A stretch of 64,000 nt of DNA from an uncultured bacterium (GTDB taxonomy: Bacteria > Patescibacteriota > Patescibacteriia > UBA9570 > XYC2-FULL-38-9), in assembly GCA_937996685.1 (NCBI GenBank), contig CALKUP010000002.1, positions 113,066 to 177,065 on the forward strand, read 5' to 3'. Below the pieces are notes generated by a model. The model was not told the origin of the DNA, did not search any database, and saw only the letters and a list, made by a program, of their open reading frames with translations. Positions 1-17,643 of the stretch are shown here, in pieces; within the stretch, counting starts at the first letter, position 1, and each line of letters starts with the position of its first letter. Made by a program: the position numbers and the translations under genes.

Positions 1-1050
1 AATGATTCAAAGCCTGCGCTCAACCCGCCAGTGATTACAGAAGGTGGACCGAATGACAAGTGGTTCTTGCAGTACCTGTTTATGAATCCAGTGAATCTAA
101 AAGAAGCTTTTGCTGTTCGTGTCTTTTCAAATGCAGAAAATTTATCACCAGAAGAATGGTATCGAAAAAATGCACCAAGCCCAGGCTCTGCAAACACGCT
201 GACAATTGATGGATATCAAGCGATTCAAGACGGAAATTCATATTACGTGTCAGCAAGTAATGTGATTCCAGGGGCAAATGGTGGTGAGAAGCAGCTTTAT
301 AATAATATTTACCTCATTACTTTTAATGACGGTGTTGAAAAAGCCGAAGCTGTTGGCGCGTTGCGTTCTGAGATTTTGCAATATCTCCATTTTAATACAA
401 ATGTTGATATGGCACAGTGTACTGGTTCTGATAAAGCAAAGCTCACGCGTGACACAAAGCGGGTGAGTGATCTTGGTACTATTGCGTCTTTGGCAAACGA
501 CTACTACCAATCAAATCGTGCGTACCCGGCGCCAAAGAGCCAATCATTTGGTTCGTATATTGCAAACTTTACAACCAGTATGTGGAATTCATGGCAAGGA
601 GCGCTTGGAAATACACTTGGCAGCACGTTACCGACAGATCCCTTGAATCTCTTTTATGCGCGGTCAACGCCAGATCCGTATAATGCGACGGAAAATTCAT
701 GGGTATCAACAGCGGAAGACCCGGTGCGTGATTGTAAATATGATCCAAATACAGGAAAATATTTTGATGAGTCAGGTACGTGTTGGGATCCAGTGAATAG
801 CAAGTTCTTTTGTCCAGAGTATTCATCTGTCTATGCGTATAAAAAAACAGATGACCAAACGGTTTCTTTATACGCCCACTTAGAATACGGGCAGTTCTTT
901 GCTGGTGGTCAATCAGAAACATATATTGATCAGGCGAATGTGCAGCGGTCTGATAATGTATGTAGTGATTTAACCAATGCTGAATGTGCGTGTTTCAATT
1001 ATGGGATCACGTCCAGAAATCCGGGCAATCAATTTACGCCAATACAATAA
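1..1050 (+). CDS. Partial CDS (3' portion; reading frame is open to position 1). Hypothetical secreted Cys-rich protein
   Basis: Open frame continues off the left edge. The C-terminal region has multiple Cys (CKYDP, CWDP, CPEY, CSDLTNAECACFNYG), suggesting an extracellular disulfide-rich domain. No recognisable family. Confidence 0.45.
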   Translation, partial: NDSKPALNPPVITEGGPNDKWFLQYLFMNPVNLKEAFAVRVFSNAENLSPEEWYRKNAPSPGSANTLTIDGYQAIQDGNSYYVSASNVIPGANGGEKQLYNNIYLITFNDGVEKAEAVGALRSEILQYLHFNTNVDMAQCTGSDKAKLTRDTKRVSDLGTIASLANDYYQSNRAYPAPKSQSFGSYIANFTTSMWNSWQGALGNTLGSTLPTDPLNLFYARSTPDPYNATENSWVSTAEDPVRDCKYDPNTGKYFDESGTCWDPVNSKFFCPEYSSVYAYKKTDDQTVSLYAHLEYGQFFAGGQSETYIDQANVQRSDNVCSDLTNAECACFNYGITSRNPGNQFTPIQ

Positions 1051-1056
1051 TATTTT

Positions 1057-1878
1057 ATGAGCGACACAGACACAAAACAATCAACAGCCGATGAGGCAGA
1101 TAAAAAATCAGGACTCGAAAAAATCCTCCCTGATAGCATGCCAAGCGTTTCATCATTGCTTGGGGGAACGGAAATTCAACCAGAGTCTTCAATTCCGTCT
1201 GAGGTTGTTGTTCCTGTTGCCCCGCAAGCTTCCGCGATTCCAAAGCCGCCTGCAGATGCTCCTGTTGTTGGTGTGCTGCAACATCCAAAGCCACAGCCTG
1301 CGGTTCCTGTAGCGCTGCCAAGTCAGCCACAGCCAATGAAAAATCGTGAACAACCACCAATTTTTGGATCACGTATTGGAAAAATGGTGTCCATTATTTT
1401 GGGGCTTGGACTATTTATTGCAATGATTGGCTTGATTATATTTTTCTTGGTGTCTCCGAACAGTGCGTTGTTTAGTGCGTTTAAAAAAGAGGATACAGTT
1501 GTGACAACGAATACAAATACCGCGCCAACAAATAGTGCTGTTGTGAATACGAGCAATACAAATTCTGCGTCAACGAACACTGAGTCAGTTGTGCCAAATG
1601 ATGCGGATGGAGACGGGTTGCTTGATAATCAAGAAGCCGGCTACCAAACAAACCCGAAAAAAATTGATACTGATGGAGACGAATTGACTGATCGACAAGA
1701 AATTGAAATTTACAAAACATCACCGACAAAAAAAGATACTGACGGAGATGGTTTTTCAGATGGTTCAGAGGTGCGTAATTTTTATAATCCAAATGGTCCA
1801 GGAAATTTAATTAATGTACCAGAGGCGATTGATTCACTTTCGAATAGTGCTGTAAATGGTACGAACGTTGTAAAATAA
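1057..1878 (+). CDS. Membrane-anchored protein with Pro/Gln-rich N-terminal region, one TM helix, Thr/Asn-rich linker and C-terminal thrombospondin-type-3-like calcium-binding repeats
   Basis: TM segment MVSIILGLGLFIAMIGLIIFFLV. Repeats DADGDGLLD, DTDGDELTD, DTDGDGFSDGSEV (D-x-D-G-D-G-x-x-D). Confidence 0.6.
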   Translation: MSDTDTKQSTADEADKKSGLEKILPDSMPSVSSLLGGTEIQPESSIPSEVVVPVAPQASAIPKPPADAPVVGVLQHPKPQPAVPVALPSQPQPMKNREQPPIFGSRIGKMVSIILGLGLFIAMIGLIIFFLVSPNSALFSAFKKEDTVVTTNTNTAPTNSAVVNTSNTNSASTNTESVVPNDADGDGLLDNQEAGYQTNPKKIDTDGDELTDRQEIEIYKTSPTKKDTDGDGFSDGSEVRNFYNPNGPGNLINVPEAIDSLSNSAVNGTNVVK

Positions 1879-1881
1879 ATT

Positions 1882-3171
1882 ATGTTTGATTCCATTCGGT
1901 CTGAAAAATCGTCACCCACACAAACAGAAAGCCTAGCTGCTGTGCGTCCAGAAATTGGTGATCCTGACGCAAAAAAATCAGTCTATACATTACCAAAAGA
2001 ATTTTTGCCAACAAAGCGTTTGTTGCCGGCAAGTGGAGGTTCCTTTTTTGCTTCGTGGAAAGTCGTTGCGTTAATTGCTTCTATCGGGGTTATATTTATC
2101 GCGATTATCGGTATTTTGGTGTACTGGCTCACTCAGCAAAATAACACAACAACTCAAACACAGGCCTTTCCGTTGACGACAAATCAAGCGGCAACAACAA
2201 ATACCGTTTCTAATAGTAGTACGCAATTGAATTTGAATGTGAATCAAGGATTAAATAGCAATGTGAATGCTGGTTTGTTTCCCAATGATAACACAAATAC
2301 AAATACAACAACGAATACAAATAGCGTGGCAACAGGGGTGAAAGCATTTTCGGTGAAAACAACTGTGCCGCTGGCTGCTGACAAAGACAAGGATCAATTA
2401 ACCGATGCCGAGGAAGCGTTGTATGGAACAAAGGTTGGATTACCTGATTCAGATAGCGATGGATTTATTGATGGAACTGAAGTGTTAAAAGCATATTCGC
2501 CAATTGCTGCAAAAAAAACGTTGCGTGACAGCGGCTTGGTGTTGCCATATAACAATACTTCATTTGGTTGGTCTATGGACTATCCGTCGAAATGGGTTGC
2601 CGGTGCATCAGATGATGCAGGAAAATCTGTGTTATTTACATCGGATTCTGTACAAGGGGAGTACGTGCAAGTTGTGATGGTTGATAACCCGCAAGGTGCC
2701 ACAGCAAAAGACTGGTACATGAGTGTATTCACGGATACAAATCCAGCTTCATTGCAAGATGCGACCGTTGCGGGACTTTCTGGAATTGTCAGTGCTGATG
2801 GCTATACATACTATTTGGCGGATGCAAAAAATATTATTGGAATTTCATATAATTTCGGAACAAAGGACGCTGTCTCATTTAAGACAACATTTCAAATGAT
2901 GTTGAGTTCTTTTGCGTATAATCCGGCAGCAGCAACAGCAAGTACCGCGACAAATACATCGTCGACGTTTTTGCAGCCGACTGTACCAACGACAAATACG
3001 AATACGACGAATACCAATACAGCGTCAACAACAACGAACACTAATACGACAAAAACAAATACAAACACGAATACCACAAACAAAAATACGAACACCAACA
3101 CAACAACAAGTCGCACGGTCCCAACAAACACCAATACAACGAATGCCAATACCGTAAGAACAATCCAATAA
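1882..3171 (+). CDS. Membrane-anchored TSP3-repeat protein with a C-terminal Thr/Asn low-complexity tail (paralog of 1057..1878)
   Basis: TM helix VVALIASIGVIFIAIIGILVYWL. DKDKDQLTD and DSDSDGFIDGTEV motifs. C-terminal about 80 aa is almost pure T/N repeats. Confidence 0.6.
   Translation: MFDSIRSEKSSPTQTESLAAVRPEIGDPDAKKSVYTLPKEFLPTKRLLPASGGSFFASWKVVALIASIGVIFIAIIGILVYWLTQQNNTTTQTQAFPLTTNQAATTNTVSNSSTQLNLNVNQGLNSNVNAGLFPNDNTNTNTTTNTNSVATGVKAFSVKTTVPLAADKDKDQLTDAEEALYGTKVGLPDSDSDGFIDGTEVLKAYSPIAAKKTLRDSGLVLPYNNTSFGWSMDYPSKWVAGASDDAGKSVLFTSDSVQGEYVQVVMVDNPQGATAKDWYMSVFTDTNPASLQDATVAGLSGIVSADGYTYYLADAKNIIGISYNFGTKDAVSFKTTFQMMLSSFAYNPAAATASTATNTSSTFLQPTVPTTNTNTTNTNTASTTTNTNTTKTNTNTNTTNKNTNTNTTTSRTVPTNTNTTNANTVRTIQ
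2930..3170 (+). repeat. Imperfect short tandem repeat (acgaat / acaaat units) encoding the TNTNTT low-complexity tail
   Basis: Visible degenerate 6-nt periodicity 'aatac(g/a)a(a/c)' across about 240 bp. Spurious antisense and +1 ORFs arise here. Confidence 0.6.
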
Positions 3172-3172
3172 C

Positions 3173-3607
3173 ATGTTTTCTATGTCCGTTGATATTTCCC
3201 GTGAGCAGGATATTCCTGAATTAACCGATGAGCTCGTTTTGCAGTTGTTTGCGGCGGCCCGTAAAACCGTTGAGGTGCCAGATGACTTTGAGTGGTCGAT
3301 TGCGCTGGTAGATGATGGAAGTATTGCGGCGCTCAATGAGCAGTATCGTGAGAAGGTTGGACCAACGGATGTGTTGTCATTTCGATACGACGATCTGCAT
3401 GGAGAAATTGTGATTTCAAAAGACCGGGTTTTTGAGCAAGCGACTGAGTACGGAAATACAGTCCTTGAGGAAAGTGCTTGGATGGTGGTTCATGGTATAC
3501 TTCATGTACTCGGCTGGGATCATGAACGATCACAAGAAGAACACGATGAGCAGCGACATTTAGAACAAACCATTTTATCACTATGCAACATTCAGTGCGC
3601 ACGTTAA
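3173..3607 (+). CDS. ybeY: Endoribonuclease YbeY (rRNA maturation factor)
   Basis: H-x-x-x-H-x-x-G-x-x-H zinc motif VVHGILHVLGWDHE. Size about 144 aa. Position upstream of dgkA as in Firmicute operons. Confidence 0.85.
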   Translation: MFSMSVDISREQDIPELTDELVLQLFAAARKTVEVPDDFEWSIALVDDGSIAALNEQYREKVGPTDVLSFRYDDLHGEIVISKDRVFEQATEYGNTVLEESAWMVVHGILHVLGWDHERSQEEHDEQRHLEQTILSLCNIQCAR

Positions 3608-3963
3608 TCAATAGTTTTCGATTTGCCATTAAAGGCTTTCGATATGCTTTTGTTCATGAGCAAAATTTCCGTATTCAAACGCTTGCGGCTATTGTGGTTT
3701 TTGCGCTTGCGTTTTTCTTTCATGTCAAACCGTGGGAAGTAGTCGCGTTGACTGGTATGGTCGTTGCGGTTCTTGTGCTGGAAATTGCGAATACAGTGAT
3801 TGAAAAATTTGTTGATTTATTAAAACCGCGAATGGAGCATTATTCTGGGGTGGTGAAGGATTTAATGGCAACAGCTGTCTTGTTGACCTCACTAGGTGCG
3901 ATCATTGTGGGCTCAACGATCTTCATTCCGTATATTGTTCACATGATTTCAGAAATGTGGTAA
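3583..3963 (+). CDS. dgkA: Diacylglycerol kinase / undecaprenol kinase family membrane protein
   Basis: About 126 aa, 3 TM helices, conserved E..ANTVIE..VD motif (LEIANTVIEKFVD). Overlaps the ybeY 3' end by 25 nt. Confidence 0.7.
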   Translation: MQHSVRTLINSFRFAIKGFRYAFVHEQNFRIQTLAAIVVFALAFFFHVKPWEVVALTGMVVAVLVLEIANTVIEKFVDLLKPRMEHYSGVVKDLMATAVLLTSLGAIIVGSTIFIPYIVHMISEMW

Positions 3964-3966
3964 AAT
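3938..3966 (+). promoter_or_regulatory. Sigma70-like promoter for ftsA: TTCACA-17-TAAAAT with TGG extension. ATG 8 nt downstream (near-leaderless)
   Basis: TTCACA 3938-3943, spacer 17 nt, TGGTAAAAT 3958-3966. ftsA ATG at 3975. Confidence 0.5.
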
Positions 3967-3974
3967 AATTGCAT

Positions 3975-5231
3975 ATGGCTCGAGAAGATATTATTACAGG
4001 ACTGGACATTGGATCAACCGCGATTCGTGTTGTTTGCAGTCAATTAAAAGAACAAACAGACGGGAGTGTTGCGCTGAGTATTATTGGCGCTGGTGAGGCT
4101 CCGGCTGAAGGGATCTCCAAAGGTGTGATTACGAGCATTGAAGATGCGGTTTCAAGCATTTCGGCTGCATTGGAAAAGTGTGAACGCATGACCGGTATCC
4201 CAATTGAAGAAGCGGTTGTGAGTATTAACGGGGCGCATGTTGTGGCTCAAGAAAGTCATGGCGTTGTCGCGGTCAGTAAACCAACTGGGGAAATTGAAGA
4301 AGATGATGTTGAGCGTGCAATGAATGCTGCACAAAGTGTTGCAACTCCACCAAACTACGAAATTTTACATGTGATTCCACGCGCTTTTTCTGTGGATGAT
4401 CAAGCAGGAATCAAAGATCCAATCGGTATGACCGGGATCAAGCTTGAGGTGGACACACAAATTATTTTAGGAATGACATCTCAAATTAAGAATGTCACGA
4501 AATCAGTCTATCGTACAGGCGTTGATATTTCTGACATGGTTGTTGAGGTGCTTGCTGCGAGTGAATCTGTGTTAACAAAACGACAAAAAGAACTTGGAGT
4601 TGTGTTGGTCAATATGGGTGGAGCAACGACAAGTATTATGGTATTTGAAGAAGGGGATGTCATCCATAGTAAAATTTTGCCAGTAGGATCTGGTCATATT
4701 ACAAACGATATCGCCATTGGATTGCGAACAACAGTTGATATTGCAGAAGAAGTGAAAAAACGATTCGGCACAGCGTTGCCAGAAACAGTGAATAAAAATG
4801 AAGAAATTGACCTCGCTGATATCGATCCACAAGAAGATGTAAAAGTATCAAAGAAAGAAGTGGCTGAAATTATTTCCGCTCGTTTAGAGGAGGTGTTTCA
4901 AATGATTCAAAAAGAACTTCGCACTATTGACCGTGATGCAAAATTGCCAGCAGGCATCGTCTTTACTGGTGGAGGAGCGTTGCTTCCTGGGCTCATTGAA
5001 ATGGCCAAAAATGACTTCCGAACCAGTGCGAGTATTGGTCTTCCAAAGCATGTTGTCTCTCCAATCGAAAAAGTGAATGACCCAACCTTTGCCACAGCTG
5101 TTGGTTTGGTTCTCTGGGCGCAGCATTTACAAGCGGTTCCTCAAGGAAAGCGTGGTGCTGTTGCGAATTTCAGCTCAGTTGCTGATGTAACTGGAAAAAT
5201 GGGGAAATGGTTTAAGTCGTTGATCCCATAG
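3975..5231 (+). CDS. ftsA: Cell division protein FtsA
   Basis: Actin-like ATPase. N-terminus ITGLDIGSTAIRVV, upstream of ftsZ. The ORF track begins at a TTG at 3969; the ATG at 3975 (MAREDII) is more likely. Confidence 0.9.
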   Translation: MAREDIITGLDIGSTAIRVVCSQLKEQTDGSVALSIIGAGEAPAEGISKGVITSIEDAVSSISAALEKCERMTGIPIEEAVVSINGAHVVAQESHGVVAVSKPTGEIEEDDVERAMNAAQSVATPPNYEILHVIPRAFSVDDQAGIKDPIGMTGIKLEVDTQIILGMTSQIKNVTKSVYRTGVDISDMVVEVLAASESVLTKRQKELGVVLVNMGGATTSIMVFEEGDVIHSKILPVGSGHITNDIAIGLRTTVDIAEEVKKRFGTALPETVNKNEEIDLADIDPQEDVKVSKKEVAEIISARLEEVFQMIQKELRTIDRDAKLPAGIVFTGGGALLPGLIEMAKNDFRTSASIGLPKHVVSPIEKVNDPTFATAVGLVLWAQHLQAVPQGKRGAVANFSSVADVTGKMGKWFKSLIP

Positions 5232-5333
5232 TGAACACATTATTTGTTCAGCATAGTCTTGCTTTTTGTTCAGAGTTCCTGTAGACTCTGAATTGTTTTA
5301 ACCTCTTGTATAAAGTATAAAAAATTCAAACCT

Positions 5334-6524
5334 ATGGAAGTCAAACCCGAAGTAGAAACCTTTGCAAAAATTAAAGTCGTTGGTGTTGGCGGTTCTGGTG
5401 GCGCGGCGATTAACCGAATGATTGAAGCTGGCTTGAAAGGTGTTGAGTTTATCGCTGTGAATACAGACGCTCAAGCGTTGCAACATTCTCCTGCACAAAA
5501 GAAAATCCATATCGGAAAAACAACAACTCGTGGACTTGGTGCTGGAATGGATCCAGAGGTTGGTTATAAGGCAGCAGAAGAAAATCAAGAAGAATTAAAA
5601 GAAGCACTGAAAGGTGCTGACATGGTATTTATTACCTGTGGTCTCGGTGGTGGAACAGGTTCTGGCGCTGGACCATTTGTTGCGCAATGCGCAAAAGAAG
5701 CTGGTGCGTTAACTGTCGCTGTTGTGACGCGTCCGTTTGCATTTGAAGGTGCGCAGCGTTCACATGTTGCAGACAGTGCGTTGTCTGATCTTGCGGAAAG
5801 TGTAGATACAATCATCACAATTCCAAATGATCGTTTATTGCAAATTATTGATAAGAAAACATCTCTATTAGATGCGTTCGGTATTGTTGATGAAGTCTTG
5901 CGTCAAGGTGTTGCTGGTATTTCTGATTTAATCACTGTTCCTGGATTGATCAACGTCGACTTTGCCGATGTGAAATCAGTCATGTCTGAAGCGGGTAGTG
6001 CATTGATGGGTATCGGAAAAGCAGCTGGTGAGCACCGCGCAGTTGAAGCGGCGAAAGCGGCAATTGATAGCCCACTTCTTGAAATGTCTATTGAAGGTGC
6101 GCAAGGTATCTTGTTCACTATTATGGGTGGCAGCAACCTTGGTATGTTTGAGGTTAATGAAGCGGCGCGTATCATTACAGAAAATGCAGATCCAAATGCA
6201 CGAATTATTTTTGGTGCTGTGATCGACGAATCATTGAAAGATGAAATTCAAATCACTGTTGTTGCAACGGGTTTTGGCGGCAAAGCGCGTTCAGTGAAAC
6301 GCCGTGAAGCAAGTAATCCATTCCGCGATGTTGATTCATTAACCCCTGGAACATCACGCTACAGTGATGATAACGAAACTGCAGCAGCGCCAGCTGGAAT
6401 GTCAATGATGGATGATGTCACAACCGCGCCTCCAGCTCGCAGTATCATGGATGAAGTGAAAGTTGATAATTCACAAGATGACGATTTGGATATCCCTGCG
6501 TTCATTCGAAAAAAGATGATGTAG
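5334..6524 (+). CDS. ftsZ: Cell division GTPase FtsZ
   Basis: Tubulin signature GGGTGSG (CGLGGGTGSGAGP), KVVGVGGSGGAAINRM, C-terminal DDLDIPAFIRKK tail. Confidence 0.95.
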   Translation: MEVKPEVETFAKIKVVGVGGSGGAAINRMIEAGLKGVEFIAVNTDAQALQHSPAQKKIHIGKTTTRGLGAGMDPEVGYKAAEENQEELKEALKGADMVFITCGLGGGTGSGAGPFVAQCAKEAGALTVAVVTRPFAFEGAQRSHVADSALSDLAESVDTIITIPNDRLLQIIDKKTSLLDAFGIVDEVLRQGVAGISDLITVPGLINVDFADVKSVMSEAGSALMGIGKAAGEHRAVEAAKAAIDSPLLEMSIEGAQGILFTIMGGSNLGMFEVNEAARIITENADPNARIIFGAVIDESLKDEIQITVVATGFGGKARSVKRREASNPFRDVDSLTPGTSRYSDDNETAAAPAGMSMMDDVTTAPPARSIMDEVKVDNSQDDDLDIPAFIRKKMM

Positions 6525-6542
6525 TAATAGAAATGAAAACAA

Positions 6543-6567
6543 GCCGCTGTAACCAGCGGTTTTTTTC
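6543..6567 (+). terminator. Rho-independent terminator after ftsZ
   Basis: Hairpin ccgctg-taac-cagcgg followed by a T7 run. Confidence 0.6.
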
Positions 6568-6586
6568 TGTACGATATTTTGCTTTG

Positions 6587-6595
6587 TGGTATACT
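6587..6595 (+). promoter_or_regulatory. Extended -10 element TGGTATACT upstream of the sensor kinase gene
   Basis: TGnTATACT at 6587-6595. In-frame ATG at 6605, 9 nt downstream. Confidence 0.5.
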
Positions 6596-6604
6596 ATTGT
6601 TTGT

Positions 6605-8683
6605 ATGTCTCGGAGGAAAAAAAATAAAAACATATTTCACTATTTACAGATGCAGCCAACGATTGGAGAGTTGCTCTTTTTTTGTTTCCTGGTTGCATTG
6701 ACGAGTGCCTTTACATTATTCGAATTGCTTGAGCACATTCATTTTTTTACATCCATTGATTTATATCGTTTATCGATCGCTGTCGATGTCATGATTACTA
6801 TTGGGGTGTCGTCTATTTCGTTTGCACGATTTTTCGCGAAAAAGAATGATACGGTGTTGTTTATTGGTTTTGCATTTGTGAGTCACGGCATTATTGATGC
6901 GTTGCGTTTGCTTGCGATTAGTGATTATGGAATTCATCATTTCCGTGTCTCGCAGTACGCTTTGGTCCATTGGTCATGGCTCGCGTCAGAAACTGTCTGG
7001 GTCTCGTTGCTTGCGATGAGTGCAGTTGTCTGGTTTTTGCAAAAAAAATATGGAGAGCAAGCGCATGTACGGTGGGGAGTGTTGTCATTGGTGGTTGCGT
7101 TGTTGACGTTGTCCGCGACAATTTTCTTTTTTACAACGCCGGTGACGATTGATTTCTATCAACCGCTCGGTCCATTTTTGCGTCCATGGGAACTGATTCC
7201 TGGGCTCATTTCTCTGATTGCGCTCGTTTTATTTTTTATAAAAGGTGATTGGGAACACGATGCGTTTGATTTTGGTTTACTTATTGCGTTGTTATGTACA
7301 TCGTTGGGACATTTCTTTTTTGGTTCGCAATCGACCGCGATATTTGATCAACATTTTTATGCGGCGCAATTATTGACGCAAACCGGAATGCTGATCGTAG
7401 CTGTTGGGTTGTTTTATAGTATGACAACACTCTTTCAAGATGTTGAGTCAAAAGAGCTTCAGTTGGTTTCCCGGGTACATGATTTGAAGCGTGAAAAAGC
7501 AATGGATGATACATTTATTGAAAGTATTGGAGATGCGATTATTGTAACGGATAGTGATACCCGAATTACACGGGTAAACAAAGCATTTGAAGAAACAATG
7601 GGTTGGACTAAAAAAGAGGCGATTGGTCAGCCGGTGACAAAGGTATTGCCGATGTTTGATTTGCATAATGCTGCGATTCCGTATGAAAAGCGCCCACAAG
7701 CAAAAGCGTTATTTGCTGGTGAGCGAATTGAAACATCAATGGAATATACGTACCAAAGAAAGGACGGTTCCTTATTTTCGGTTGCGTCTACGGTGACTCC
7801 GGTGATTGTTGACGGAGATATTATCGGTGCAATTGAAGTGTTTCGAGATGTGTCAAAAGAAAAGATGATCGATGAGCAAAAGAGCACATTCGTGTCTGTT
7901 GCGTCACATCAACTGCGAACCCCGCTCACGACACTGAATTGGTACACGGAAATGTTGCTGTCTGGAGATGCCGGAAAAATTAATAAAAAACAGAAAGAAT
8001 TTTTATTAGAAATTTACCAAGGGAGTAAGCGCCTTGTTGTGTTGGTGAATGATTTATTGAATATTTCGCGCATTGAATCGGGCAGGCTGAAAATTCAACC
8101 GGTTGAAACGAGTATTCATTCGTTGATTAAAGAAACAGTCGCAGAAATCCGCCCGTTATTACGCGGTCGCTCAACAAGCGTGACTGTCGATATTCCAGCG
8201 CTTCAATTTACTGATGTTTTGATCGACCCGCTGATTTTACGTCAGGTGATTCATAATTTACTAACGAATGCTATTCGATATTCTTCGAAAGATACAAAAA
8301 GCGTGATTACTATTTCGGTGCAAAAAAAGCGTTTTGCGCTCACACGCAATAAAGCAGCGGAACTCAGACCAGGGAGTTATATTGTTATTGCTGTGAAAGA
8401 TCAGGGTATTGGTATTCCAAAGAACCAGCAAGATCGTATTTTTGAAAAGTTTTTTCGAGCAGACAATGCGCTGCATGCCGCCGCAGATGGGAGTGGTTTA
8501 GGTTTGTATTTTATTAAAATGATTATGCAAGAATCAGGCGGAGCGTTATGGTTTACCTCAAAAGAAAATCAAGGAAGTACCTTTTTTGTCGCTATCCCTG
8601 TTACTGGCATGAAAGCAAAGGTTGGAGATAAAGAAATATCAACAGTGGCTTCAACAGAATTGCTTTCAAAGGAGAAAAAATAG
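6605..8683 (+). CDS. Sensor histidine kinase with a polytopic N-terminal membrane sensor, PAS, HisKA and HATPase_c domains
   Basis: H-box FVSVASHQLRTPLTTL, G-box GSGLGLYFIK, about 8 predicted TM helices at the N-terminus. The ORF track start at 6533 lies inside the ftsZ terminator, so the ATG at 6605 (or 6649) is preferred. Confidence 0.8.
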   Translation: MSRRKKNKNIFHYLQMQPTIGELLFFCFLVALTSAFTLFELLEHIHFFTSIDLYRLSIAVDVMITIGVSSISFARFFAKKNDTVLFIGFAFVSHGIIDALRLLAISDYGIHHFRVSQYALVHWSWLASETVWVSLLAMSAVVWFLQKKYGEQAHVRWGVLSLVVALLTLSATIFFFTTPVTIDFYQPLGPFLRPWELIPGLISLIALVLFFIKGDWEHDAFDFGLLIALLCTSLGHFFFGSQSTAIFDQHFYAAQLLTQTGMLIVAVGLFYSMTTLFQDVESKELQLVSRVHDLKREKAMDDTFIESIGDAIIVTDSDTRITRVNKAFEETMGWTKKEAIGQPVTKVLPMFDLHNAAIPYEKRPQAKALFAGERIETSMEYTYQRKDGSLFSVASTVTPVIVDGDIIGAIEVFRDVSKEKMIDEQKSTFVSVASHQLRTPLTTLNWYTEMLLSGDAGKINKKQKEFLLEIYQGSKRLVVLVNDLLNISRIESGRLKIQPVETSIHSLIKETVAEIRPLLRGRSTSVTVDIPALQFTDVLIDPLILRQVIHNLLTNAIRYSSKDTKSVITISVQKKRFALTRNKAAELRPGSYIVIAVKDQGIGIPKNQQDRIFEKFFRADNALHAAADGSGLGLYFIKMIMQESGGALWFTSKENQGSTFFVAIPVTGMKAKVGDKEISTVASTELLSKEKK

Positions 8684-8739
8684 CCGCTGTGCCTATGCGC
8701 AAAGATATGGTACTCTATACGTAATTACAGATACATTTT

Positions 8740-9117
8740 ATGCCAGCATCCAAGCCCCACATTTTAATCGCAGAAGATGAAAAGCCAGTCGCAAAAGCTT
8801 TGTCTCTTAAATTAGAGCACGAAGGCTTTGCTGTGACCATTGTTGAAAACGGGGTTGATGCTCTCGCTGCCATTGAAAAAGATGATTTTTCATGCCTCGT
8901 CCTTGATTTGATGATGCCGGAAATGGATGGTTTTGAGGTATTGTCAGCCTTGCAGGAAAAACAGATCACAGGCGTGCCTATTTTGGTTGCGTCTAATCTC
9001 GCACAAGCTGAAGATATCGCTCGAGCAAAAGACCTTGGAGCTGATGATTATTATGTGAAATCCGATACGCCACTCACTGTTGTTGTTGAGCGTGTGCAAA
9101 AATTAGCTCGTACATAA
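8740..9117 (+). CDS. Single-domain response regulator (CheY-like receiver only)
   Basis: ILIAEDE...D-LMMPEMDGFEVL receiver motifs. 125 aa, no output domain. Immediately upstream of the pilus ATPase gene. Confidence 0.8.
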   Translation: MPASKPHILIAEDEKPVAKALSLKLEHEGFAVTIVENGVDALAAIEKDDFSCLVLDLMMPEMDGFEVLSALQEKQITGVPILVASNLAQAEDIARAKDLGADDYYVKSDTPLTVVVERVQKLART

Positions 9118-9122
9118 TATAT

Positions 9123-10823
9123 ATGAATCGTTTTGGCCTCTATTCTGAACCTGAAGTTATCGCTCTATTGGAAAAAGGGAATTATATTTCTGAATCCGAT
9201 CGTCTTGCGGCAACAAAAAAAGAAGAAGCGCAACCAGGCGGTGGTATTGATTTTTTAATTAACACAGAGTCGATTACATTTGATTTGATCGGTCAGGCAA
9301 TTGCTGAGAGTCTTGGTGTTGCATATGCGGATATCAATTCACGCAAACCGGCGCGTGACACAATGTTGCTGCTTCCAGAGGCAATGTCTCTTGAGTCACG
9401 TCTTGTGGTATACCGTGTGCAAGACAATGCGGTTGTGATCGCGACAGATGATGTGGTGGCGACAAAAAAAGCAGCAAAAAATATTGAGGCTGCGCTCGGC
9501 GGAAAAGCAGCAGTGTTTGCCTATGCCTTGCCGCAAGATATTTCCGAAGCACTGACTGTATTTCGGAAAGCGCTAGAAACACGTTTTTCTGCAATCATTG
9601 AAAAAACAAAACGTGTAGCACCAGAAATTATTACAGAGATTATCAATGACGCATTGATTTATCGCTCGTCTGATATTCACTTCGAGCCTCAAATGGATGA
9701 AGTAATTATTCGTTTCCGTATTGATGGTGTTTTGGAAGAAGCAGGCCGCGTGCCGATGGGGTATTACAGTACGATTGTGAATCGTGTGAAAGTGCAAGCG
9801 CGATTGCGGATTGACGAACATTTTGCAGCGCAAGACGGTGCAATTCGGTATGAACAAAACGGAGTCGTGACAGACATGCGTGTGTCGATTGTTCCGACGG
9901 TGAATGGAGAAAAAATTGTATTACGTTTATTGTCAGAAACAGCGCGTAATTTTACATTGGAAGATATTGGACTTGATTCTGCACATGAAGCGCAATTAAA
10001 AGAATCGTTTGCAAAACCGTTTGGGATGATTCTGGTCACTGGCCCAACAGGAAGTGGTAAAACAACAACGCTCTACACAGTGATTAAGGCGTTGAATACT
10101 CCGGATATTAATATTACAACCATCGAAGATCCGGTTGAATATAAAATTGCTGGCATCAATCAAATCCAAGTCAACGCAGAAACAAATATGACATTTGCAA
10201 AAGGCTTGCGTTCGATTGTGCGTCAAGATCCTGATGTGATTCTCGTTGGGGAAATTCGAGATACAGAAACAGCTGAAATTGCTGTGAACGCAGCATTGAC
10301 TGGTCATTTATTGTTGTCGACATTTCATGCAAACGATGCCGCGACAGCAATGCCGCGCTTGATTGATATGGGCATTGAGCCGTTTTTGCTCGCTTCAACA
10401 TTGGAAACGGTATTAGCGCAACGTTTAGTCCGTCGTATCTGTACAGAATGTCGGGTGAGTGTTGTTGTGACAAGCACAGAATTAAAAAAGGCCTACCCGG
10501 ATAGTTATGGTTTTTTTCCTGGAGCAAAAACGACGCTTTATAAAGGGAAGGGGTGCGCGGCGTGTCATGACAGTGGATACCGAGGACGTGTTGCGATTAT
10601 GGAGATGATTCAGATAACGCCAGAAATGGAAGCGTTGTTATTACAGCGACCATCGAGTCAAGAGATTTGGACGCTCGCTAGCAAGCAGGGAAGTGTGTCG
10701 TTATTTGAAGATGGTATTGCAAAAGTAAAATCTGGAATGACAACTCTTGGTGAAGTATATCGTGTTGCAAATCCGCCGGCGACAACAACAGCAGCGGTAA
10801 TGACGCGTAAAAAATCACGATAA
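9123..10823 (+). CDS. pilB: Type IV pilus / type II secretion assembly ATPase (PilB/GspE family) with an N-terminal T2SSE_N domain
   Basis: Walker A GPTGSGKTT, Asp box, tetracysteine CTEC...CAAC motif typical of GspE/PilB, N-terminal GSPII_E_N-like region. Confidence 0.9.
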   Translation: MNRFGLYSEPEVIALLEKGNYISESDRLAATKKEEAQPGGGIDFLINTESITFDLIGQAIAESLGVAYADINSRKPARDTMLLLPEAMSLESRLVVYRVQDNAVVIATDDVVATKKAAKNIEAALGGKAAVFAYALPQDISEALTVFRKALETRFSAIIEKTKRVAPEIITEIINDALIYRSSDIHFEPQMDEVIIRFRIDGVLEEAGRVPMGYYSTIVNRVKVQARLRIDEHFAAQDGAIRYEQNGVVTDMRVSIVPTVNGEKIVLRLLSETARNFTLEDIGLDSAHEAQLKESFAKPFGMILVTGPTGSGKTTTLYTVIKALNTPDINITTIEDPVEYKIAGINQIQVNAETNMTFAKGLRSIVRQDPDVILVGEIRDTETAEIAVNAALTGHLLLSTFHANDAATAMPRLIDMGIEPFLLASTLETVLAQRLVRRICTECRVSVVVTSTELKKAYPDSYGFFPGAKTTLYKGKGCAACHDSGYRGRVAIMEMIQITPEMEALLLQRPSSQEIWTLASKQGSVSLFEDGIAKVKSGMTTLGEVYRVANPPATTTAAVMTRKKSR

Positions 10824-11959
10824 TGACACAGCATTTTTCTCGAGAACGAACGGCCTTGCAGCGCTTCATGCGCTCGCTTGGTTTGAGTTTTTTGCGGTTG
10901 AATGTTTCTCGTGAACGCAAGCAATATATCATGGACAATATTGGCATTCAGTTATCATCTGGTCTTGATGTGTTGCAGGCAATTGAGGCGGTTGAAAAAG
11001 ATGCACAGTCTTGGGCGCTCGCTCGAATATTACGCATGATTGCGGAGGATGTGTTGTCTGGTGTGCCGTTTTGGCAAGCTCTTGGTGATACGCATTTATT
11101 TTCAATGCATATCGTTTCGCTGATTCGGATCGGTGAAGAGTCCGGAAAGCTCGCAGAAAATATTGCAGTGATCGCAAGCGAGCAAGATAAAGAACGTGTG
11201 TTTCAATCACGGATTCGCAGCGCATTGTTATACCCGGTATTTGTATTGAGTTTAACCGTGGTGATTGCAGTTGGTATCGCGTGGTTTATTTTGCCAAATA
11301 TTATTACGGTGTTTAAACAGATGGATATTGCCTTGCCGTTGCCGACACGAATCTTAATGGTTGTGGGGCGATTTTTCCGTGATTACGGCCACATTGCGGC
11401 GCCGTCTATTGTATTCGGCACAGTTGCTTTTGTGTATGGTGTGTTTTTTCACCCGCAAACAAAATTTATTGGACAGTGGTTATTGTTCCGAGTCCCAGGG
11501 ATTCGCCGGATCATGCAACAGCTCGAACTCGCACGCATGGGGTATGTTTTAGGCAATTTATTAGAAGCGGGACTCCCAATCGTTGAAGCCATTGAGTCAC
11601 TGGCCGATGCAACAGCCCTTCGAAGTTATAAAAAGTTTTATCAAGGATTGGCTCGTCGGATTGAAGACGGTGATTCATTTGCCGTTATTTTTGATTCGCA
11701 AAAACGCATTCGCCATCTTGTTCCGGTATCTATCCAGCAAATTATTACAACCGGTGAACAAACAGGTCATTTGCCAAAAAGTCTGAAAAAAATTGGAGAA
11801 ATCTATGAAGGCAAAACAGAAACATCGACAAAAAATATTGCAGTGATTCTCGAACCAATTTTATTAGTCATTGTCTGGGTTGGTGTTGTAACGGTTGCGT
11901 TGTCAGTTGTGCTTCCGATTTATAGTTTAATTGGTGGTTTAAATTCAGGTTCGTTGTAG
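10823..11959 (+). CDS. pilC: Type IV pilus platform protein (PilC/GspF family)
   Basis: Two T2SSF repeats, 378 aa, polytopic. Start overlaps the pilB stop (translational coupling). Confidence 0.85.
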   Translation: MTQHFSRERTALQRFMRSLGLSFLRLNVSRERKQYIMDNIGIQLSSGLDVLQAIEAVEKDAQSWALARILRMIAEDVLSGVPFWQALGDTHLFSMHIVSLIRIGEESGKLAENIAVIASEQDKERVFQSRIRSALLYPVFVLSLTVVIAVGIAWFILPNIITVFKQMDIALPLPTRILMVVGRFFRDYGHIAAPSIVFGTVAFVYGVFFHPQTKFIGQWLLFRVPGIRRIMQQLELARMGYVLGNLLEAGLPIVEAIESLADATALRSYKKFYQGLARRIEDGDSFAVIFDSQKRIRHLVPVSIQQIITTGEQTGHLPKSLKKIGEIYEGKTETSTKNIAVILEPILLVIVWVGVVTVALSVVLPIYSLIGGLNSGSL

Positions 11960-11962
11960 TGT

Positions 11963-12406
11963 ATGAAAGGGTTTGCAGAAGACGGATTTTCTCTTTTGGA
12001 GCTGTTGTTGTCCATTGCGTTAATTGGTATTTTGCTCGCGGCATCATTTCCGGTGTATCAGCAAGTGCAAAATAAAAATGCTGCAATGCTTGCCGCAAAC
12101 ACCATTGAACAAACAGTGCATCGGGCGACGTTGCTTGCGCGTTCAGGTGCGCAAGACAGCGCGTGGGGCGTGAAGGTTGCGTCCGGAAGTGTCACGTTAT
12201 TTTCAGGTGATTCTTATGCGGCTCGTGATACTGCATTTGATGAGGTGTTTACATTTTCGACAACAGTGCAATTCAGCACCACGCCTGAAATGGTATTTGC
12301 AAAACAGACTGGTGTGCAACCCGCTGATCAAACAATCGGGGTGTCGAGTCACGGTGAATCCGTAGTGACGCTCACTATTTTGACTAGTGGCGTTGTGAAT
12401 CGATAA
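11963..12406 (+). CDS. Prepilin-type N-terminal cleavage/methylation domain protein (minor pilin or pseudopilin)
   Basis: Class III signal: GFSLLELLLSIALIGILLA (G|F..E at +5). 147 aa. Confidence 0.75.
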   Translation: MKGFAEDGFSLLELLLSIALIGILLAASFPVYQQVQNKNAAMLAANTIEQTVHRATLLARSGAQDSAWGVKVASGSVTLFSGDSYAARDTAFDEVFTFSTTVQFSTTPEMVFAKQTGVQPADQTIGVSSHGESVVTLTILTSGVVNR

Positions 12407-12410
12407 TCCT

Positions 12411-15400
12411 ATGAAGCAATTACAGATTTTTCAGTTATGGCATAGACGCAACATTCGTGGCTTTTCAATTGTTGAAGCAATGCTGGCAGTGGCGGTGTTT
12501 GGGATTATTGTATCTGGAACCGTCGGCGCTTTGGTATACGCAAGTCAGGGCGGCGGTGATTCTGGTGTCCGTGTGCGCGCGAATTTTTTTGCAGCAGAAG
12601 GTATCACAGCAGTGCGCTCTATTGCTGGACATCAGTGGTATGACATTCAAAGTGCGGCAACTGGGCCGCATGGATTAGTGGTGACGGGAAATGTGTGGAC
12701 TCTCTCTGGATCGTCGGATACACGTGATCAATTTACCCGCACAGTCACATTTACAGATATCTGTCGGAATGCAACGAATGATTTTGAAACGTGCAACGGG
12801 ACAAATCGTGATACCCGAACACGAGAAGTTGCAGTCACTGTTCAATGGACTGGGCAATTTGGGAATGCGCGAACTGTCACACAAACAGCACGCTTAACAA
12901 ACTGGGGAACGGACATGTGGAAGCAGACTGATTGGTCAGGTGGAGATGGTCAAGCGACGTGGTCTGCGGAAGATCAATATGATAGTCACACTGATGATAT
13001 TGATGTTACAACAGCGGGAGAGGTGACAGCGACCGGCGCTCAGCAAGGCTGTGGAATAAAAACATATCCGCTCACAACTCCAGCGGATTACACTGCGTCA
13101 GGGGCTGAACTCACGCTGAATTCTGGAACCGCCTTTTTAACATCATCAGGCACCGACGTTGATGCAAACACAAAAGGTTTGTGGCATTTGAATGATGCTT
13201 CGGGCACAGCGAAAGATGTTTCTGGAAATAATAATAATCTGACAGCAGCGGGTAATGCGGCGTATGGTGCAGCGGCAAAGTTTGCGACGGGTGTGACATC
13301 TGACGGTTCAGGTGATCTTTTGGCTGTGACTGATGCTGCGCAGTCTGGTCTTGATATTACGGGTGCTATCACGTTGGAAGCATGGATTAAACAGGGTGCA
13401 ACGGGAACTGGAACAGATGTCATTATGGAAAAAAATGGTGGAACGGCGGCAACGGGTTCATATCAGTTGTATATGGTCAGCTCTGGCGCCTTGAACACAA
13501 CGCTGAATTTCCGCGTGAGTAACGGAACGAGTTTCACGACTGTGACTTCAGCTGCGTTTGCGATCAACACAAGTACATGGCGACATGTTGCGGCGGTGTA
13601 TAATGGTACATCAACGCTGACGATTTATCTCGATGGCGTATCTGTCGGAACAGCGGCATTTAGTTCGACGATTTTGAATAGCGCGGCAGATTTTCGTATT
13701 AGCTCTACAGGCACAAGCTCGTTTAATGGGATGATTGATGAGGTGCGTGTTTCAAACAGTGCGCGATATGCAGGAAATTTTGCAGTTCCAACAACGCCAT
13801 TTGGATTGAATTATTCGACTACAAAACCAACAGTTGCTCCAGCAGTGGAATACGATCCGGCAACGATTGGGCGGTGGCAGGCATTTTCTGAAACAGCCAC
13901 AAAAACGCGTGATGCAGAAATTTATTATCAGTTGTCTGACGATAGCGGAGCGACCTGGAAATGGTGGAACGGATCTGCGTGGGCAACAGCAAGTAGTGGC
14001 ACAGACTACAATACTGCAACGACAATCAATACAAATATCACGACATTTTCAACAACTGCCGGGAAATTGAATTGGCGAGCCTTTTTTGTGAGCAATGGTT
14101 CAGATCCAGCGGTGCTTGATTCTGTGTCGTTGACCTGCGTGATGTTGCAACAATGGAATTACGACACAAGCGGGGATTACGCCGCAGACAGCGGCGTGGC
14201 AGTGAGTAGCGGCGCGGCGGCGCTGACGTCAACAGGAACGGACGCTGATGCAAATACGGTTGCGTTGTGGCACATGAATGAAGCGACGAGTGGAGCGGTC
14301 CTACAAGATTACACCGCAAACAACAATGATTTGACGCCTGTAGGAACAACGAATATTACCTGGAATACGACTGGTAATTTTAATGGCGCAGTGCAATTTG
14401 GCGCAACGGGTGATTACTTTCAATTAGCCGGCGCCGCACAAACCGGAATGGCTCCGTCTGGTTCGTTTACCATTGATGGTTGGATTAAAAAGTCCACCAA
14501 TAGTGCGGACGATCTATTTCAACGTTGGGGAACAGGTCTTTCAACGCGGTCATATAAACTGTCGATTAACACGACTGGAAATCTGGTATTTCAAACAGGG
14601 GACGGTGTGACGAATACATCGCTCACATCAGCGACAACTGTGACGACTGGTAGTTGGGTGCATGTCGCAGGGCAGTTTACGCAAAACAGCGCAACGACTG
14701 GAACAATGACAATCTGGATTAATGGCGTACAGCGTGGAAGTATATCAACAACCTATGGTTCAGTGGTGAGTGCGTCGCAGGCAGTGCTTTTGAGTAATAC
14801 AAGTGCATCGGCGTTTGGTGGTGTGGTTGATGAGTTCCGTTTTTCAAATATAGCGCGTTACTCAACGACCTTTACTCCGCAGATTGTGCCATTTGGAAAA
14901 GTGTATCCAACAAACTCTCCGACCATTCGCAATGTGGCTGCATTCTCAGCGACCGATCCTGTTGCGTGGTATGGTATGACGAGTACACAAACAACATTCA
15001 ATGAAAGCGCGGTGAATTATCAGGTCAGCAACGATGGTGTTACTTGGAAGTATTGGAATGGCTCAGCATGGGCAACGGCGAGTAGTGCCACGCACTATAA
15101 TCCTATCGCGACAATCAATACGAATATTGCAACATTTCCACTCACAGGCAACTCCCTCTATTTCAAGGCTTTTTTGGTAAGCTCTGGCTCTGACGTTGTT
15201 TCGATTGATCGGACAGAAGCGATGTATGTACAAAACCCTGATGCGAGTGGAAGTGGTGGCGGTGGCGGATCTGGAACGTTGACCTCATCGGCGTTTAACC
15301 TCGGACGCGCGACAACAATTACACGTGTTGAATGGGATGAAGACGACACGCCATGTGCTGCTGACTGTGTGATTCGAGCCCAAGTGCGGACAGCGCCAGA

Positions 15401-15596: not shown

Positions 15597-15597
15597 G

Positions 15598-16110
15598 ATG
15601 AAGCACTCACAAGCCGGATTTACATTGATTGAATTACTGCTGTACGCTGGTATTGTTGCAATTATGACAACCGCGATTTCGGGCTTGCTTGCGCTGTCTC
15701 TTCAGGCGCGCGTCAAAAATCAAGTGGTGGAGTCAGTTGAAAGTGGCTCGACGATCGCAATGGACAGCATGCTTGCGGCAATTCGTAATAGCGACGGCGT
15801 GACACTGACAACAGATGGTAATGGTGATGCGATTGTGACGCTTGCAGAAACAGTTGCTGGAGTACATCCAACCGTCTTTCAATTGAGTGCTGGAGTCTTA
15901 ACAAAAAAAGAAGGAAGTAGCGCAGCAGTGCCGGTGACGTCTTCGAATATTGTCATTGATCATTTCACGGCAACAGACACAACGCCGAGCGGTGAAACAA
16001 TGCAAGTCATTTCTCTTGGATTTGATGTGCGTTATAATAATCAAAGTCCGCGTCAGGAATATCAGTATGCTGCAACGTATAATGGCACAGCGCAACTCAA
16101 CACACCGTAG
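15598..16110 (+). CDS. Prepilin-type minor pilin
   Basis: MKHSQAG|FTLIELLLYAGIVAIM classic short leader plus G-F-T-L-I-E. The ATG at 15598 sits 1 nt after the stop of the giant pilin gene. Confidence 0.75.
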   Translation: MKHSQAGFTLIELLLYAGIVAIMTTAISGLLALSLQARVKNQVVESVESGSTIAMDSMLAAIRNSDGVTLTTDGNGDAIVTLAETVAGVHPTVFQLSAGVLTKKEGSSAAVPVTSSNIVIDHFTATDTTPSGETMQVISLGFDVRYNNQSPRQEYQYAATYNGTAQLNTP

Positions 16111-16114
16111 TAGT

Positions 16115-16540: not shown

Positions 16541-16569
16541 TTGCGCCTTTGCTTGGATTTTGGTATATT
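16541..16569 (+). promoter_or_regulatory. Strong sigma70-like promoter for the major pilin gene: TTGCGC-17-TATATT with TGG extension
   Basis: TTGCGC 16541-16546, 17-nt spacer, TGGTATATT 16561-16569. ATG at 16603. Confidence 0.5.
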
Positions 16570-16602
16570 GCCAATAATGTGTATTAATAAAATGATTTTT
16601 GT

Positions 16603-17046: not shown

Positions 17047-17072
17047 GAAGCGGGTCTTAAGGCTTAAAGCTT

Positions 17073-17107: not shown

Positions 17108-17144
17108 TGCGCAATTCCGCGCCTGCTCATTAATGGAGGCTATC

Positions 17145-17637: not shown

Positions 17638-17643
17638 GTTCAT

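Follow-up and report, generated by a model that had tools for sequence, protein, structure and literature searches.

The Patescibacteria (candidate phyla radiation, CPR) account for a large share of bacterial diversity, and most of them live on other cells. The organisation of their envelope and surface proteins is very poorly understood. We analysed a 64,000-nucleotide stretch of Patescibacteria DNA, referred to here as the window, in which three open reading frames (ORFs) on the + strand, A, B and C, encode single-pass membrane proteins carrying tandem calcium-binding loops of the thrombospondin type 3 (TSP3) class. In type I dockerins, a duplicated unit of ~22 residues, consisting of a Ca loop plus a helix, mediates Ca2+-dependent protein docking. 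The closest solved relative of the loops studied here, by sequence profile and by structure alike, is the EF-hand 2/3 pair in region B of Staphylococcus aureus Bap (Protein Data Bank (PDB) entries 7c7r and 7c7u). This pair lies inside the ~450-residue region B of a 2,276-residue LPXTG-type wall protein and controls amyloid-like aggregation. Its fold is stabilised by Ca2+ binding, and aggregation loses its calcium sensitivity when loop positions 1, 3 and 12 are mutated (PMC7785521). For the module there is thus a characterised precedent in bacteria, that of a conformational switch dependent on Ca2+. The TSP3 repeats of eukaryotes and of OmpA-like proteins depend on intra-repeat disulfides, a point for which 10.1101/2023.11.21.568195 cites Dai et al. 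2017. Our literature searches, which also covered TSP3 proteins of CPR bacteria and giant Cys-rich CPR proteins, found no study of the A, B or C families. The first-pass annotation of this DNA, which held that such proteins have no characterised bacterial function, was therefore right about the families and wrong about the module, for which Bap EF-hand 2/3 is a demonstrated Ca2+ switch.

Our analysis firmly supports A, B and C as genuine, conserved, extracytoplasmic Ca-loop membrane proteins and, with equal firmness, places A and B in a conserved gene trio with a giant surface protein. The earlier proposal that the window encodes membrane-anchored proteins displaying, outside the cell, Ca-binding repeats of the bacterial TSP3 class is thereby upheld, and all three reading frames exist where it had put them. 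Their features are as follows (window coordinates, strand in brackets).

1057..1878 (+): ORF A, 273 residues; disordered cytoplasmic tail, one transmembrane helix, Thr/Asn stalk, three TSP3_bac Ca loops and a conserved tail ending in ...EVRNFYNPNGPGNL
1369..1452 (+): A transmembrane helix, residues ~105-132; Kyte-Doolittle (KD) score 2.99, AlphaFold2 (AF2) helix 105-132 with a predicted local distance difference test score (pLDDT) >90
1600..1806 (+): A Ca-binding module, residues 182-250; loop-helix repeats DADGDGLLD, DTDGDELTD and DTDGDGFSD plus the conserved tail
1882..3171 (+): ORF B, 429 residues; short cytoplasmic tail, one transmembrane helix, Thr/Asn stalk, degenerate TSP3 pair, PsbP/Mog1-like domain and (Thr/Asn)n tail
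2056..2145 (+): B transmembrane helix, residues ~59-88; KD 3.07, AF2 helix 59-88
2380..2502 (+): B Ca-binding pair, residues 167-207; DKDKDQLTDAEE ... DSDSDGFIDGTE, pLDDT 95-98
2521..2916 (+): B predicted PsbP/Mog1/DcrB-like alpha/beta domain, residues ~214-345 (~130 residues), from Foldseek against the PDB
2929..3168 (+): B C-terminal low-complexity (Thr/Asn)n tail, 80 residues, from the translation; pLDDT <50
62314..63054 (+): ORF C, 246 residues; long Pro/Gln-rich cytoplasmic tail, one transmembrane segment, short stalk and two TSP3_bac loops, ending in ...NGYSPTGSGRLVQ
62731..62811 (+): C transmembrane segment, residues ~140-166; KD 2.67
62905..63033 (+): C Ca-binding pair plus tail, residues 198-240; DVDGDGLTE (residue 198) and DTDGDGFAD (residue 220)

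A Kyte-Doolittle scan with 19-residue sliding windows found exactly one strongly hydrophobic segment in each of A, B and C (2.67-3.07; residues ~106-132, ~59-86 and ~140-166), and in A and B the AF2 models place a helix there, in agreement with the single transmembrane helix per protein claimed before. In all three, more Lys and Arg residues lie on the N-terminal than on the C-terminal flank of this segment, and the strongly basic N-flank of their relatives reads R-x-G-R-G-S-R-x-R; the predicted topology is therefore N-in/C-out. A distance of 60-140 residues separates the helices from the N-terminus, which makes them anchors and not cleavable signal peptides.

A motif scan showed three D-x-D-x-D-x-(L/F) repeats in A and two each in B and C, spaced by 22-23 residues. 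These seven tandem units of ~22 residues carry acidic ligands at loop positions 1, 3, 5, 9 and 12. When a stricter motif was applied to all six frames of the whole 64 kb, six matches were obtained, all within A, B and C and in frame; the seventh repeat, at residue 198 of C, ends in E and was caught by the per-ORF scan only. None of the three proteins contains cysteine (fraction 0.0). Against PF18884 (TSP3_bac), for which the cutoff is 25 bits, A scored 41.8 bits (E 9e-11) and C 41.0 bits (E 1.7e-10). B showed no match to this model even at E<=10, and none of the three matched the eukaryotic TSP_3 model PF02412 or Dockerin_1 (PF00404) at E<=10, a level at which HMMER filters may drop very weak matches. 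The D-x-D-G-D-G-type Ca-loop motifs of the first-pass annotation are thus real and make up seven repeats, the acidic ligand columns being invariant in the A and B families, and their TSP3 likeness holds for A and C in terms of the bacterial model but not for B, nor for any of the three in terms of PF02412. From the ligand pattern we infer that the modules of A, B and C bind Ca2+.

The three proteins can be aligned outside low-complexity sequence. BLASTP aligned A and C from the transmembrane helix through the C-terminus (E 5e-17), and the matches between A and B (E 2e-8) and between B and C (E 3e-10) were confined to the repeat pair. What had been called one paralogous family shares a common module, while A and B are separate, deeply conserved orthologous families. 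In the same way, the single architecture proposed for all three describes A and C and fails for B. The N-terminal tail of B is short (~58 residues) and not Pro/Gln-rich, where a disordered Pro/Gln/Ser-rich N-terminus had been described; its sequence does not end at the G-(S/T)-E-V that was said to close the repeats, but continues past G-T-E-V into an extra domain of ~130 residues and the 80-residue (Thr/Asn)n tail.

The homologues come from metagenome-assembled genomes of Patescibacteria/CPR (Kerfeld-, Falkow-, Uhr-, Magasanik- and Buchananbacteria). Orthologues of A are 41-49% identical over nearly the full length. The repeats of A start at residues 182, 204 and 227; in the second of its loops, E replaces the usual Gly. 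In the A-family alignment of 21 sequences (A3), all three repeats have invariant D/G/E ligand columns and are followed by a conserved post-repeat tail, EVRNFYNPNGPGKL. The AF2 model reaches a pLDDT of ~96 at residues 180-250, and the ectodomains of A and C have essentially no extracellular domain besides the repeat module. When the A3 profile was run against the PDB with hmmsearch, it matched the Bap B-domain structures 7c7r (chain B, E 1.5e-7) and 7c7u (4e-6) in an alignment that spans both loops, DYDKDGLLDRYE...DTDGDGKNDGDEV. In Foldseek searches of the PDB, the A model superimposed on 7c7u_A and 7c7r_A to a root-mean-square deviation of 0.8 Å over 43-45 columns with 44-46% identity and a probability of 1.00. 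A also scored 24.9 bits against Binary_toxB (PF03495), the Ca-binding domain of anthrax protective antigen (PA) and binary toxins, just under the cutoff of 25.

A database search returned 55 homologues of B, and 52 sequences make up the B-family alignment (A2). The loops of B read DKDKDQLTD (residue 167) and DSDSDGFID (residue 189), with Q at the Gly position of the first. Across the 52 homologues the columns of D167, D169, D171, E177, E178, D189, D191, D193, D197, G198, E200 and P207 are invariant, and 24 of the 52 pass PF18884. All acidic Ca ligands of B are therefore under selection despite the degenerate loops. The AF2 model of B has a pLDDT of 93-98 for residues 160-350 and a transmembrane helix at 59-88, and the remainder is disordered.

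The domain that follows the pair, at residues ~214-345, was compared with the PDB using Foldseek. The top matches are BT_1490 (3hlz, 5e-6) and CyanoP (2xb3, 2.8e-5; 2lnj, 4.2e-5), followed by Mycobacterium tuberculosis Apa (5zx9, 2.8e-4), plant PsbP chains and Tsi3. Probabilities are 0.99-1.00 in the first fourteen matches and 0.84-1.00 across the top twenty, the lower Tsi3 entries being the weakest; target-normalised TM-scores are 0.36-0.56 and sequence identities 11-17%. The B-family profile gave weak matches to 2xb3 and 2lnj in the PDB (E 0.04-0.05). Two of the 52 homologues match the Pfam families PsbP_2, DcrB or PsbP, and B of the window matched no Pfam family at E<=0.01. The predicted structure thus firmly supports a PsbP-like domain in B; folds of this PsbP/Mog1-like type are typically extracytoplasmic protein-binding scaffolds. 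At E<=1e-30 the B-family profile collected 3,050 clusters at 50% identity, multi-repeat giants included, and about half of the 150 best matches listed are full-length proteins of 320-600 residues. The B family is large and has no name. Part of its (Thr-Asn)n tail is encoded by imperfect ACAAAT-type tandem DNA repeats (Tandem Repeats Finder; 2989..3106, + strand; periods 6, 15, 21 and 27), which could permit the length of the tail to vary.

The distribution of C is narrower. Its close orthologues (P0128-P0132), 54-62% identical, are confined to the nearest relatives, and beyond these the search yields hundreds of short CPR proteins that consist of a transmembrane helix, a stalk and a TSP3 pair. 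C adjoins a sensor kinase, as previously noted. The HAMP/HisKA kinase gene and C are transcribed divergently with ~35 nucleotides between them, and the position of C between this kinase and mnmA is the same in contigs of two related genomes. The minus-strand ORF 60743..62629 (628 residues) is over-extended: orthologous HAMP/HisKA kinases have 511 residues, so that the true kinase start lies near 62278 and the overlap with ORF C is spurious.

63066..64000 (+): mnmA-like gene (tRNA 2-thiouridylase, MKQTVIVGMSGGVDS...), starting 12 nucleotides past C and running out of the window

An mnmA-like neighbour also follows the C orthologue in contig L091. The same is probable for L092, in which the ORF behind C is unannotated and cut by the contig end.

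The genomic setting of A and B is far more widely conserved. Directly upstream of A lies the end of a gene that the first-pass annotation overlooked because the window edge cuts it.

31..1050 (+): Cys-rich C-terminal part (339 residues) of a giant surface protein, its gene cut by the window start; recognised by tblastn in relatives

This fragment has no match in Pfam, NCBIfam or the PDB. In relatives, tblastn found the same domain at the end of ORFs of 1,864-2,355 residues located directly upstream of A homologues; in some it is internal or several kb upstream of A, in ORFs of up to about 3,300 residues. Full-length giant relatives of 1,800-3,300 residues have 60-170 cysteines, a T4SS_pilin domain (an N-terminal, VirB2-like hairpin at residues ~51-121 that serves as anchor) and Ig-like domains of the TIG and Big_5 types. 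The order giant-A-B was present in 8 of 8 metagenome and genome contigs looked up, with giant ORFs of 1,864 to 2,835 or more residues. Patterns derived from the A alignment and searched in species-representative genomes also catch unrelated TSP3 proteins, and the loci were therefore filtered by their neighbouring genes. Of the 31 loci that passed, 25 have enough upstream DNA to judge the giant ORF, and in 24 of these an ORF of at least 1,000 residues with 44-173 cysteines lies immediately upstream of A. The A-B tandem behind a giant protein occurs in about 30 species of Patescibacteria, in genomes with Uhr-, Falkow-, Magasanik-, Buchanan- and Kerfeldbacteria names as well as the complete genome CP060223.1, and usually sits just before ybeY-dgkA-ftsA-ftsZ. 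At one locus, L031, giant, A and B are still together, although 10 kb of downstream sequence yielded no ybeY, dgkA or ftsZ and ftsA has its nearest match >8 kb off.

A and B are two distinct, ancient, co-travelling orthologous families. A recent tandem duplication as the origin of the A/B pair was rejected, as their likeness is limited to the repeat pair and both families co-occur in distant genomes.

In the window, the trio is followed by genes in a conserved order, given here for context only.

3173..3607 (+): ybeY
3583..3963 (+): dgkA
3969..5231 (+): ftsA
5334..6524 (+): ftsZ

This order is common to L002, L004-L010 and about 30 genome loci, and rpsU/yqeY lie upstream of the trio. The gaps giant-A, A-B and B-ybeY measure 6, 3 and 1 nucleotides; as far as ftsA, neighbouring genes lie 1-6 nucleotides apart or overlap, and ~100 nucleotides precede ftsZ. 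No strong terminator-like site was found before 6541, and weaker consensus matches lie at 2519 and 5268. The close spacing is compatible with co-transcription, yet nearly the whole window is co-directional.

The cytoplasmic tails of A, B and C are poorly conserved overall, those of A and B being modelled as disordered, yet each family keeps short motifs of its own.

1114..1134 (+): A short motif L-E-K-I-L-P-D, residues 20-26, from alignment A3
1981..2004 (+): B short motif V-Y-T-L-P-K-E-F, residues 34-41; family motif (I/V)x(V/T)MPxx(F/Y)
62686..62730 (+): C juxtamembrane motif T-P-E-D-E-A-D-L-F-G-R-E-K-L-S, residues 125-139, kept in P0128-P0132, P0134 and P0153

Most members of the A family start with MF(D/E)D and bear (E/D)D(I/M)F(A), and a [DE][IMVL]F motif is found in the A tail at 22 of 26 species loci. 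A of the window and its closest orthologues have an L-x-K-I-L-P-type motif instead, near the same end of the tail; MAFFT sets (E/D)D(I/M)F(A) opposite residues 30-34 of A (SVSSL) and not opposite LEKILPD, so the correspondence is loose. The B motif occurs at 22 of 27 species loci and in nearly the same form at another four, and its P38 is invariant in 52 sequences. In the C family, TPxDEADLFGKEKLS sits immediately before the helix. No shared tail motif was found in the other single-pass proteins of the window. The motifs suggest docking of the tails on cytoplasmic partners, and signalling or tethering across the membrane. An N-terminal INLLP peptide of PilN is known to dock on PilM, and the tail of FtsN docks on FtsA; the phi-x-phi-M-P-x-x-F pattern of B and the K-I-L-P of A in the window resemble the phi-x-L-L-P pattern of PilN.

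These observations can be brought together in a model of A, B and C as single-pass proteins of type II (N-in, C-out), in each of which a flexible Thr/Asn-rich stalk of 35-85 residues ends, beyond the membrane, in a compact Ca2+ module. The module, two or three loop-helix repeats (DxDxDG-L-x-D-x-x-E) homologous to Bap EF-hand 2/3, would fold upon Ca2+ binding. A and B would then dock onto the giant protein and organise it in the wall zone, and their disordered cytoplasmic tails would reach a cytoplasmic partner through the short linear motifs of each family. C would be a lineage-restricted, stand-alone member of the larger CPR pool of proteins with a transmembrane helix, a stalk and a TSP3 pair, and would probably use the same Ca2+-dependent docking module on another partner. 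We tentatively favour this reading, in which A and B serve the giant surface protein as Ca2+-dependent, membrane-anchored accessory or anchoring subunits and C is the same module with a different partner, and we rate it somewhat short of an even chance. In its favour are the PF18884 scores and invariant ligand columns, the likeness to the Bap pair, the confidently modelled repeat modules and B domain with its PsbP-like fold, the single helices with basic N-flanks, the conserved giant-A-B arrangement and its persistence in L031 away from ybeY and ftsA, the conserved tail motifs and the close gene spacing. The physical contact between A or B and the giant protein, like any cytoplasmic partner, is deduced from this context and from the motifs. 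The trio of a giant Ig-domain protein and two small Ca-loop membrane proteins offers a concrete candidate for a surface-display or attachment apparatus.

Several observations weigh against the accessory-subunit reading. The Foldseek match between A and Bap is short and, taken alone, its E-value of 0.03-0.05 lacks significance; the first loop of B, with Q at the Gly position, fails the Pfam model. The conserved gene order could be inherited synteny in a genome that is almost all one-strand, and the case for an operon is weakened by the flanking rpsU-yqeY ... ybeY-dgkA backbone, itself a conserved array of old standing. At locus L060 an A-like gene adjoins ybeY with neither giant protein nor B, which implies that A can function without them. 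The TSP3 pair is also fused to sortase (PF04203), to L,D-transpeptidase (YkuD, PF03734) and to OmpA_C domains, fusions that fit a generic spacer or wall-zone role equally well.

Such a generic role is the most probable of the alternatives, although we consider it unlikely. On this view the module, lacking any specific protein partner, would bind cations or serve as a spacer, rigidified by Ca2+, next to the membrane or in the wall zone; as structural Ca2+-binding envelope proteins, A and C would stabilise the wall or surface layer (S-layer) or buffer divalent cations, and the adjacency to the giant gene would be inherited order. In CPR sortases and L,D-transpeptidases the same repeats directly follow the anchor, and in diderms they lie beside peptidoglycan-binding OmpA_C domains. 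Given these fusions and the many short CPR proteins, the TSP3 pair is a mobile, widely reused juxtamembrane element, and pattern matches to the module come from many phyla, archaea included. The retention of A in L060 and the near absence of any other extracellular domain in A and C fit this role too. It fails to explain, however, the A-B tandem behind a giant protein over about 30 species and its persistence in L031, the PsbP-like protein-binding fold of B within that tandem, the family-specific cytoplasmic motifs, or the conservation of the post-repeat tail EVRNFYNPNGPGKL. If only this conservative reading were true, the locus would add another TSP3-repeat envelope set, useful for annotation and unsurprising.

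The first-pass annotation had suggested that the proteins themselves mediate Ca-dependent attachment to a host or partner. Ca-binding modules on flexible stalks outside the cell would suit this role, Patescibacteria are largely host-dependent, and Bap, whose role is in cell-cell aggregation, is regulated through a related module. There are also weak matches to the TSP3-repeat proteins CglD and MtsC/MtsD of Myxococcus, which NCBIfam names as an adventurous gliding motility lipoprotein and as cell-cell cohesion proteins, respectively: A and C score 17-34 bits against the CglD, MtsC and MtsD models, whose cutoffs are 350-800. CglD, MtsC/MtsD and lanmodulin were accordingly rejected as family names, the matches being local, at the level of the repeat and far below cutoff. 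The module of Bap, however, regulates adhesion and does not bind a ligand. A and C expose little besides 50-70 ordered residues of Ca loops on a stalk of 35-50 residues, which is short for passing wall and S-layer, and the strong conservation of the A-family repeats and post-repeat tail would be unusual for a host-contact surface, which normally diversifies. A far stronger candidate for an adhesin is the giant Ig-domain protein encoded alongside. Direct attachment of an epibiotic cell through A, B or C, for which we see no specific support, is therefore distinctly unlikely, and the genomic context points to partnership with the giant surface protein instead.

We regard as more doubtful still a role of A and B as division-linked adaptors, in which their motifs would dock on the actin-fold protein FtsA and so link the divisome with the wall zone or the giant protein. 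In both of these N-in, single-pass proteins the tail is variable apart from a conserved short motif; the resemblance of these motifs to the PilN pattern, the A-B-ybeY-dgkA-ftsA-ftsZ order in nearly all loci, with FtsA encoded two to three genes downstream, and the weak matches of FtsA homologues to PilM_2 are all compatible with such docking. Against it, the motif likeness is short and loose, the intervening ybeY and dgkA are unrelated to division, L031 and L025 part the A-B pair from ftsA, and most A-family members bear the different motif (E/D)D(I/M)F. A broader version of the same analogy, which we likewise hold to be improbable, would make the giant protein, A and B an undescribed Patescibacteria-wide trans-envelope apparatus, with A and B as Ca2+-gated adaptors whose ectodomains, a dockerin-like TSP3 module and a PsbP-like domain, hold the giant adhesin and whose tails plug into FtsA or another machine; if true, it would couple surface attachment to division or growth in host-dependent ultra-small bacteria.

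That A, B and C are chance reading frames with compositional motifs, a suspicion raised by the long low-complexity Pro/Gln and Thr/Asn stretches and the repetitive DNA of the B tail, has a negligible probability and was rejected on account of full-length orthologues, identical proteins called on independent assemblies, conserved synteny, Pfam E-values of ~1e-10 and high-confidence folded domains.

Some further observations concern the relatives and surroundings of the trio. In some Uhrbacteria-like genomes, a third TSP3 membrane protein of 260-275 residues, with 2 TSP3 motifs and 12 cysteines, is encoded between giant and A (contig coordinates).

L011 9081..9905: third TSP3 membrane protein
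L015 9099..9926: third TSP3 membrane protein
L020 8786..9568: third TSP3 membrane protein

Many records of metagenome-assembled genomes titled 'uncultured Gammaproteobacteria bacterium' (L012-L015, L021, L024, L028, L030, L038, L039, L045 and L047) bear the Patescibacteria-type arrangement giant-A-B-ybeY-dgkA-ftsA-ftsZ; their FtsA and FtsZ are 50-65% identical to those of the window, and the titles look like mislabels. Nearly all long ORFs of the window (1..64000) lie on the + strand and the cumulative GC skew climbs monotonically; the GC content dips locally to 0.367 at 24001..26000 and is 0.40-0.49 elsewhere. Beyond ftsZ follows a larger cluster.

6533..17046 (+): type IV pilus module with MASE3/PAS histidine kinase, response regulator, PilB-like T2SSE ATPase, PilC-like T2SSF protein and four N_methyl pilins

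One of these pilins has 1,061 residues and a Laminin_G_3 lectin-like domain. The module sits between ftsZ and nrdR; in the more distant relatives L008-L010, nrdR directly follows ftsZ. A link of A and B to the pilus cluster (9123..17046) was rejected, because its placement between ftsZ and nrdR is limited to this lineage and L002 and the cluster is absent from L008-L010.

Comparison with known systems shows which parts of A, B and C have precedents. Like A and C, the TSP3_bac proteins of PF18884 have 22-residue DxDxDG-L-x-D units in tandem pairs or triplets outside the cell; the Pfam entry defines the repeat alone, and not the full-length A, B and C families, the architecture of transmembrane helix and stalk, the PsbP-like domain or the trio. 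The Bap pair and the A/B/C modules are alike in being cysteine-free pairs of DxDxDG loops and helices, ~23 residues apart, in cell-surface proteins. Unlike in Bap, the module makes up nearly the whole ectodomain of a small membrane protein, and no amyloidogenic region was identified in A, B or C. Eukaryotic TSP3 and bacterial OmpA-like TSP3 proteins share with them the Asp-rich tandem DxDxDG Ca2+ loops in an extracellular or periplasmic location, but A, B and C have no cysteine, OmpA_C domain or beta-barrel. The design of the module also resembles that of dockerins, and the relative P0202 is annotated with both Dockerin_1 and TSP3_bac, although A, B and C themselves lack a Dockerin_1 match; by analogy, the TIG/Big_5 Ig-like domains of the giant protein may be candidate cohesin-type partners. 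With the B components of anthrax and other binary toxins, A shares the near-cutoff Pfam match and weak Foldseek matches to iota toxin Ib, and A, B and C have no toxin domains. Myxococcus CglD and MtsC/MtsD (NF033765, NF047638 and NF047639) are, like A and C, surface proteins with TSP3-type Ca loops, but they come from a diderm and are large, being either lipoproteins or MYXO-CTERM proteins. PilN- and FtsN-like adaptors match A and B in their N-in single-pass topology and in having a conserved short cytoplasmic motif.

For B, the proteins of the PsbP/CyanoP/DcrB/Mog1 group (PF01789, PF18933 and PF08786) share the alpha/beta sandwich and the extracytoplasmic location of its predicted domain. B differs from them in having no photosystem context and in the fusion of this domain to a TSP3 pair on a stalk with a transmembrane anchor, a combination undescribed in those families. 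The building blocks, TSP3_bac repeat and PsbP-like fold, are thus already known, whereas the full-length families and the gene trio that combine them are undescribed; fold and module homology, including homology to the Ca2+ switch of Bap, can now be assigned to two large unannotated protein families.

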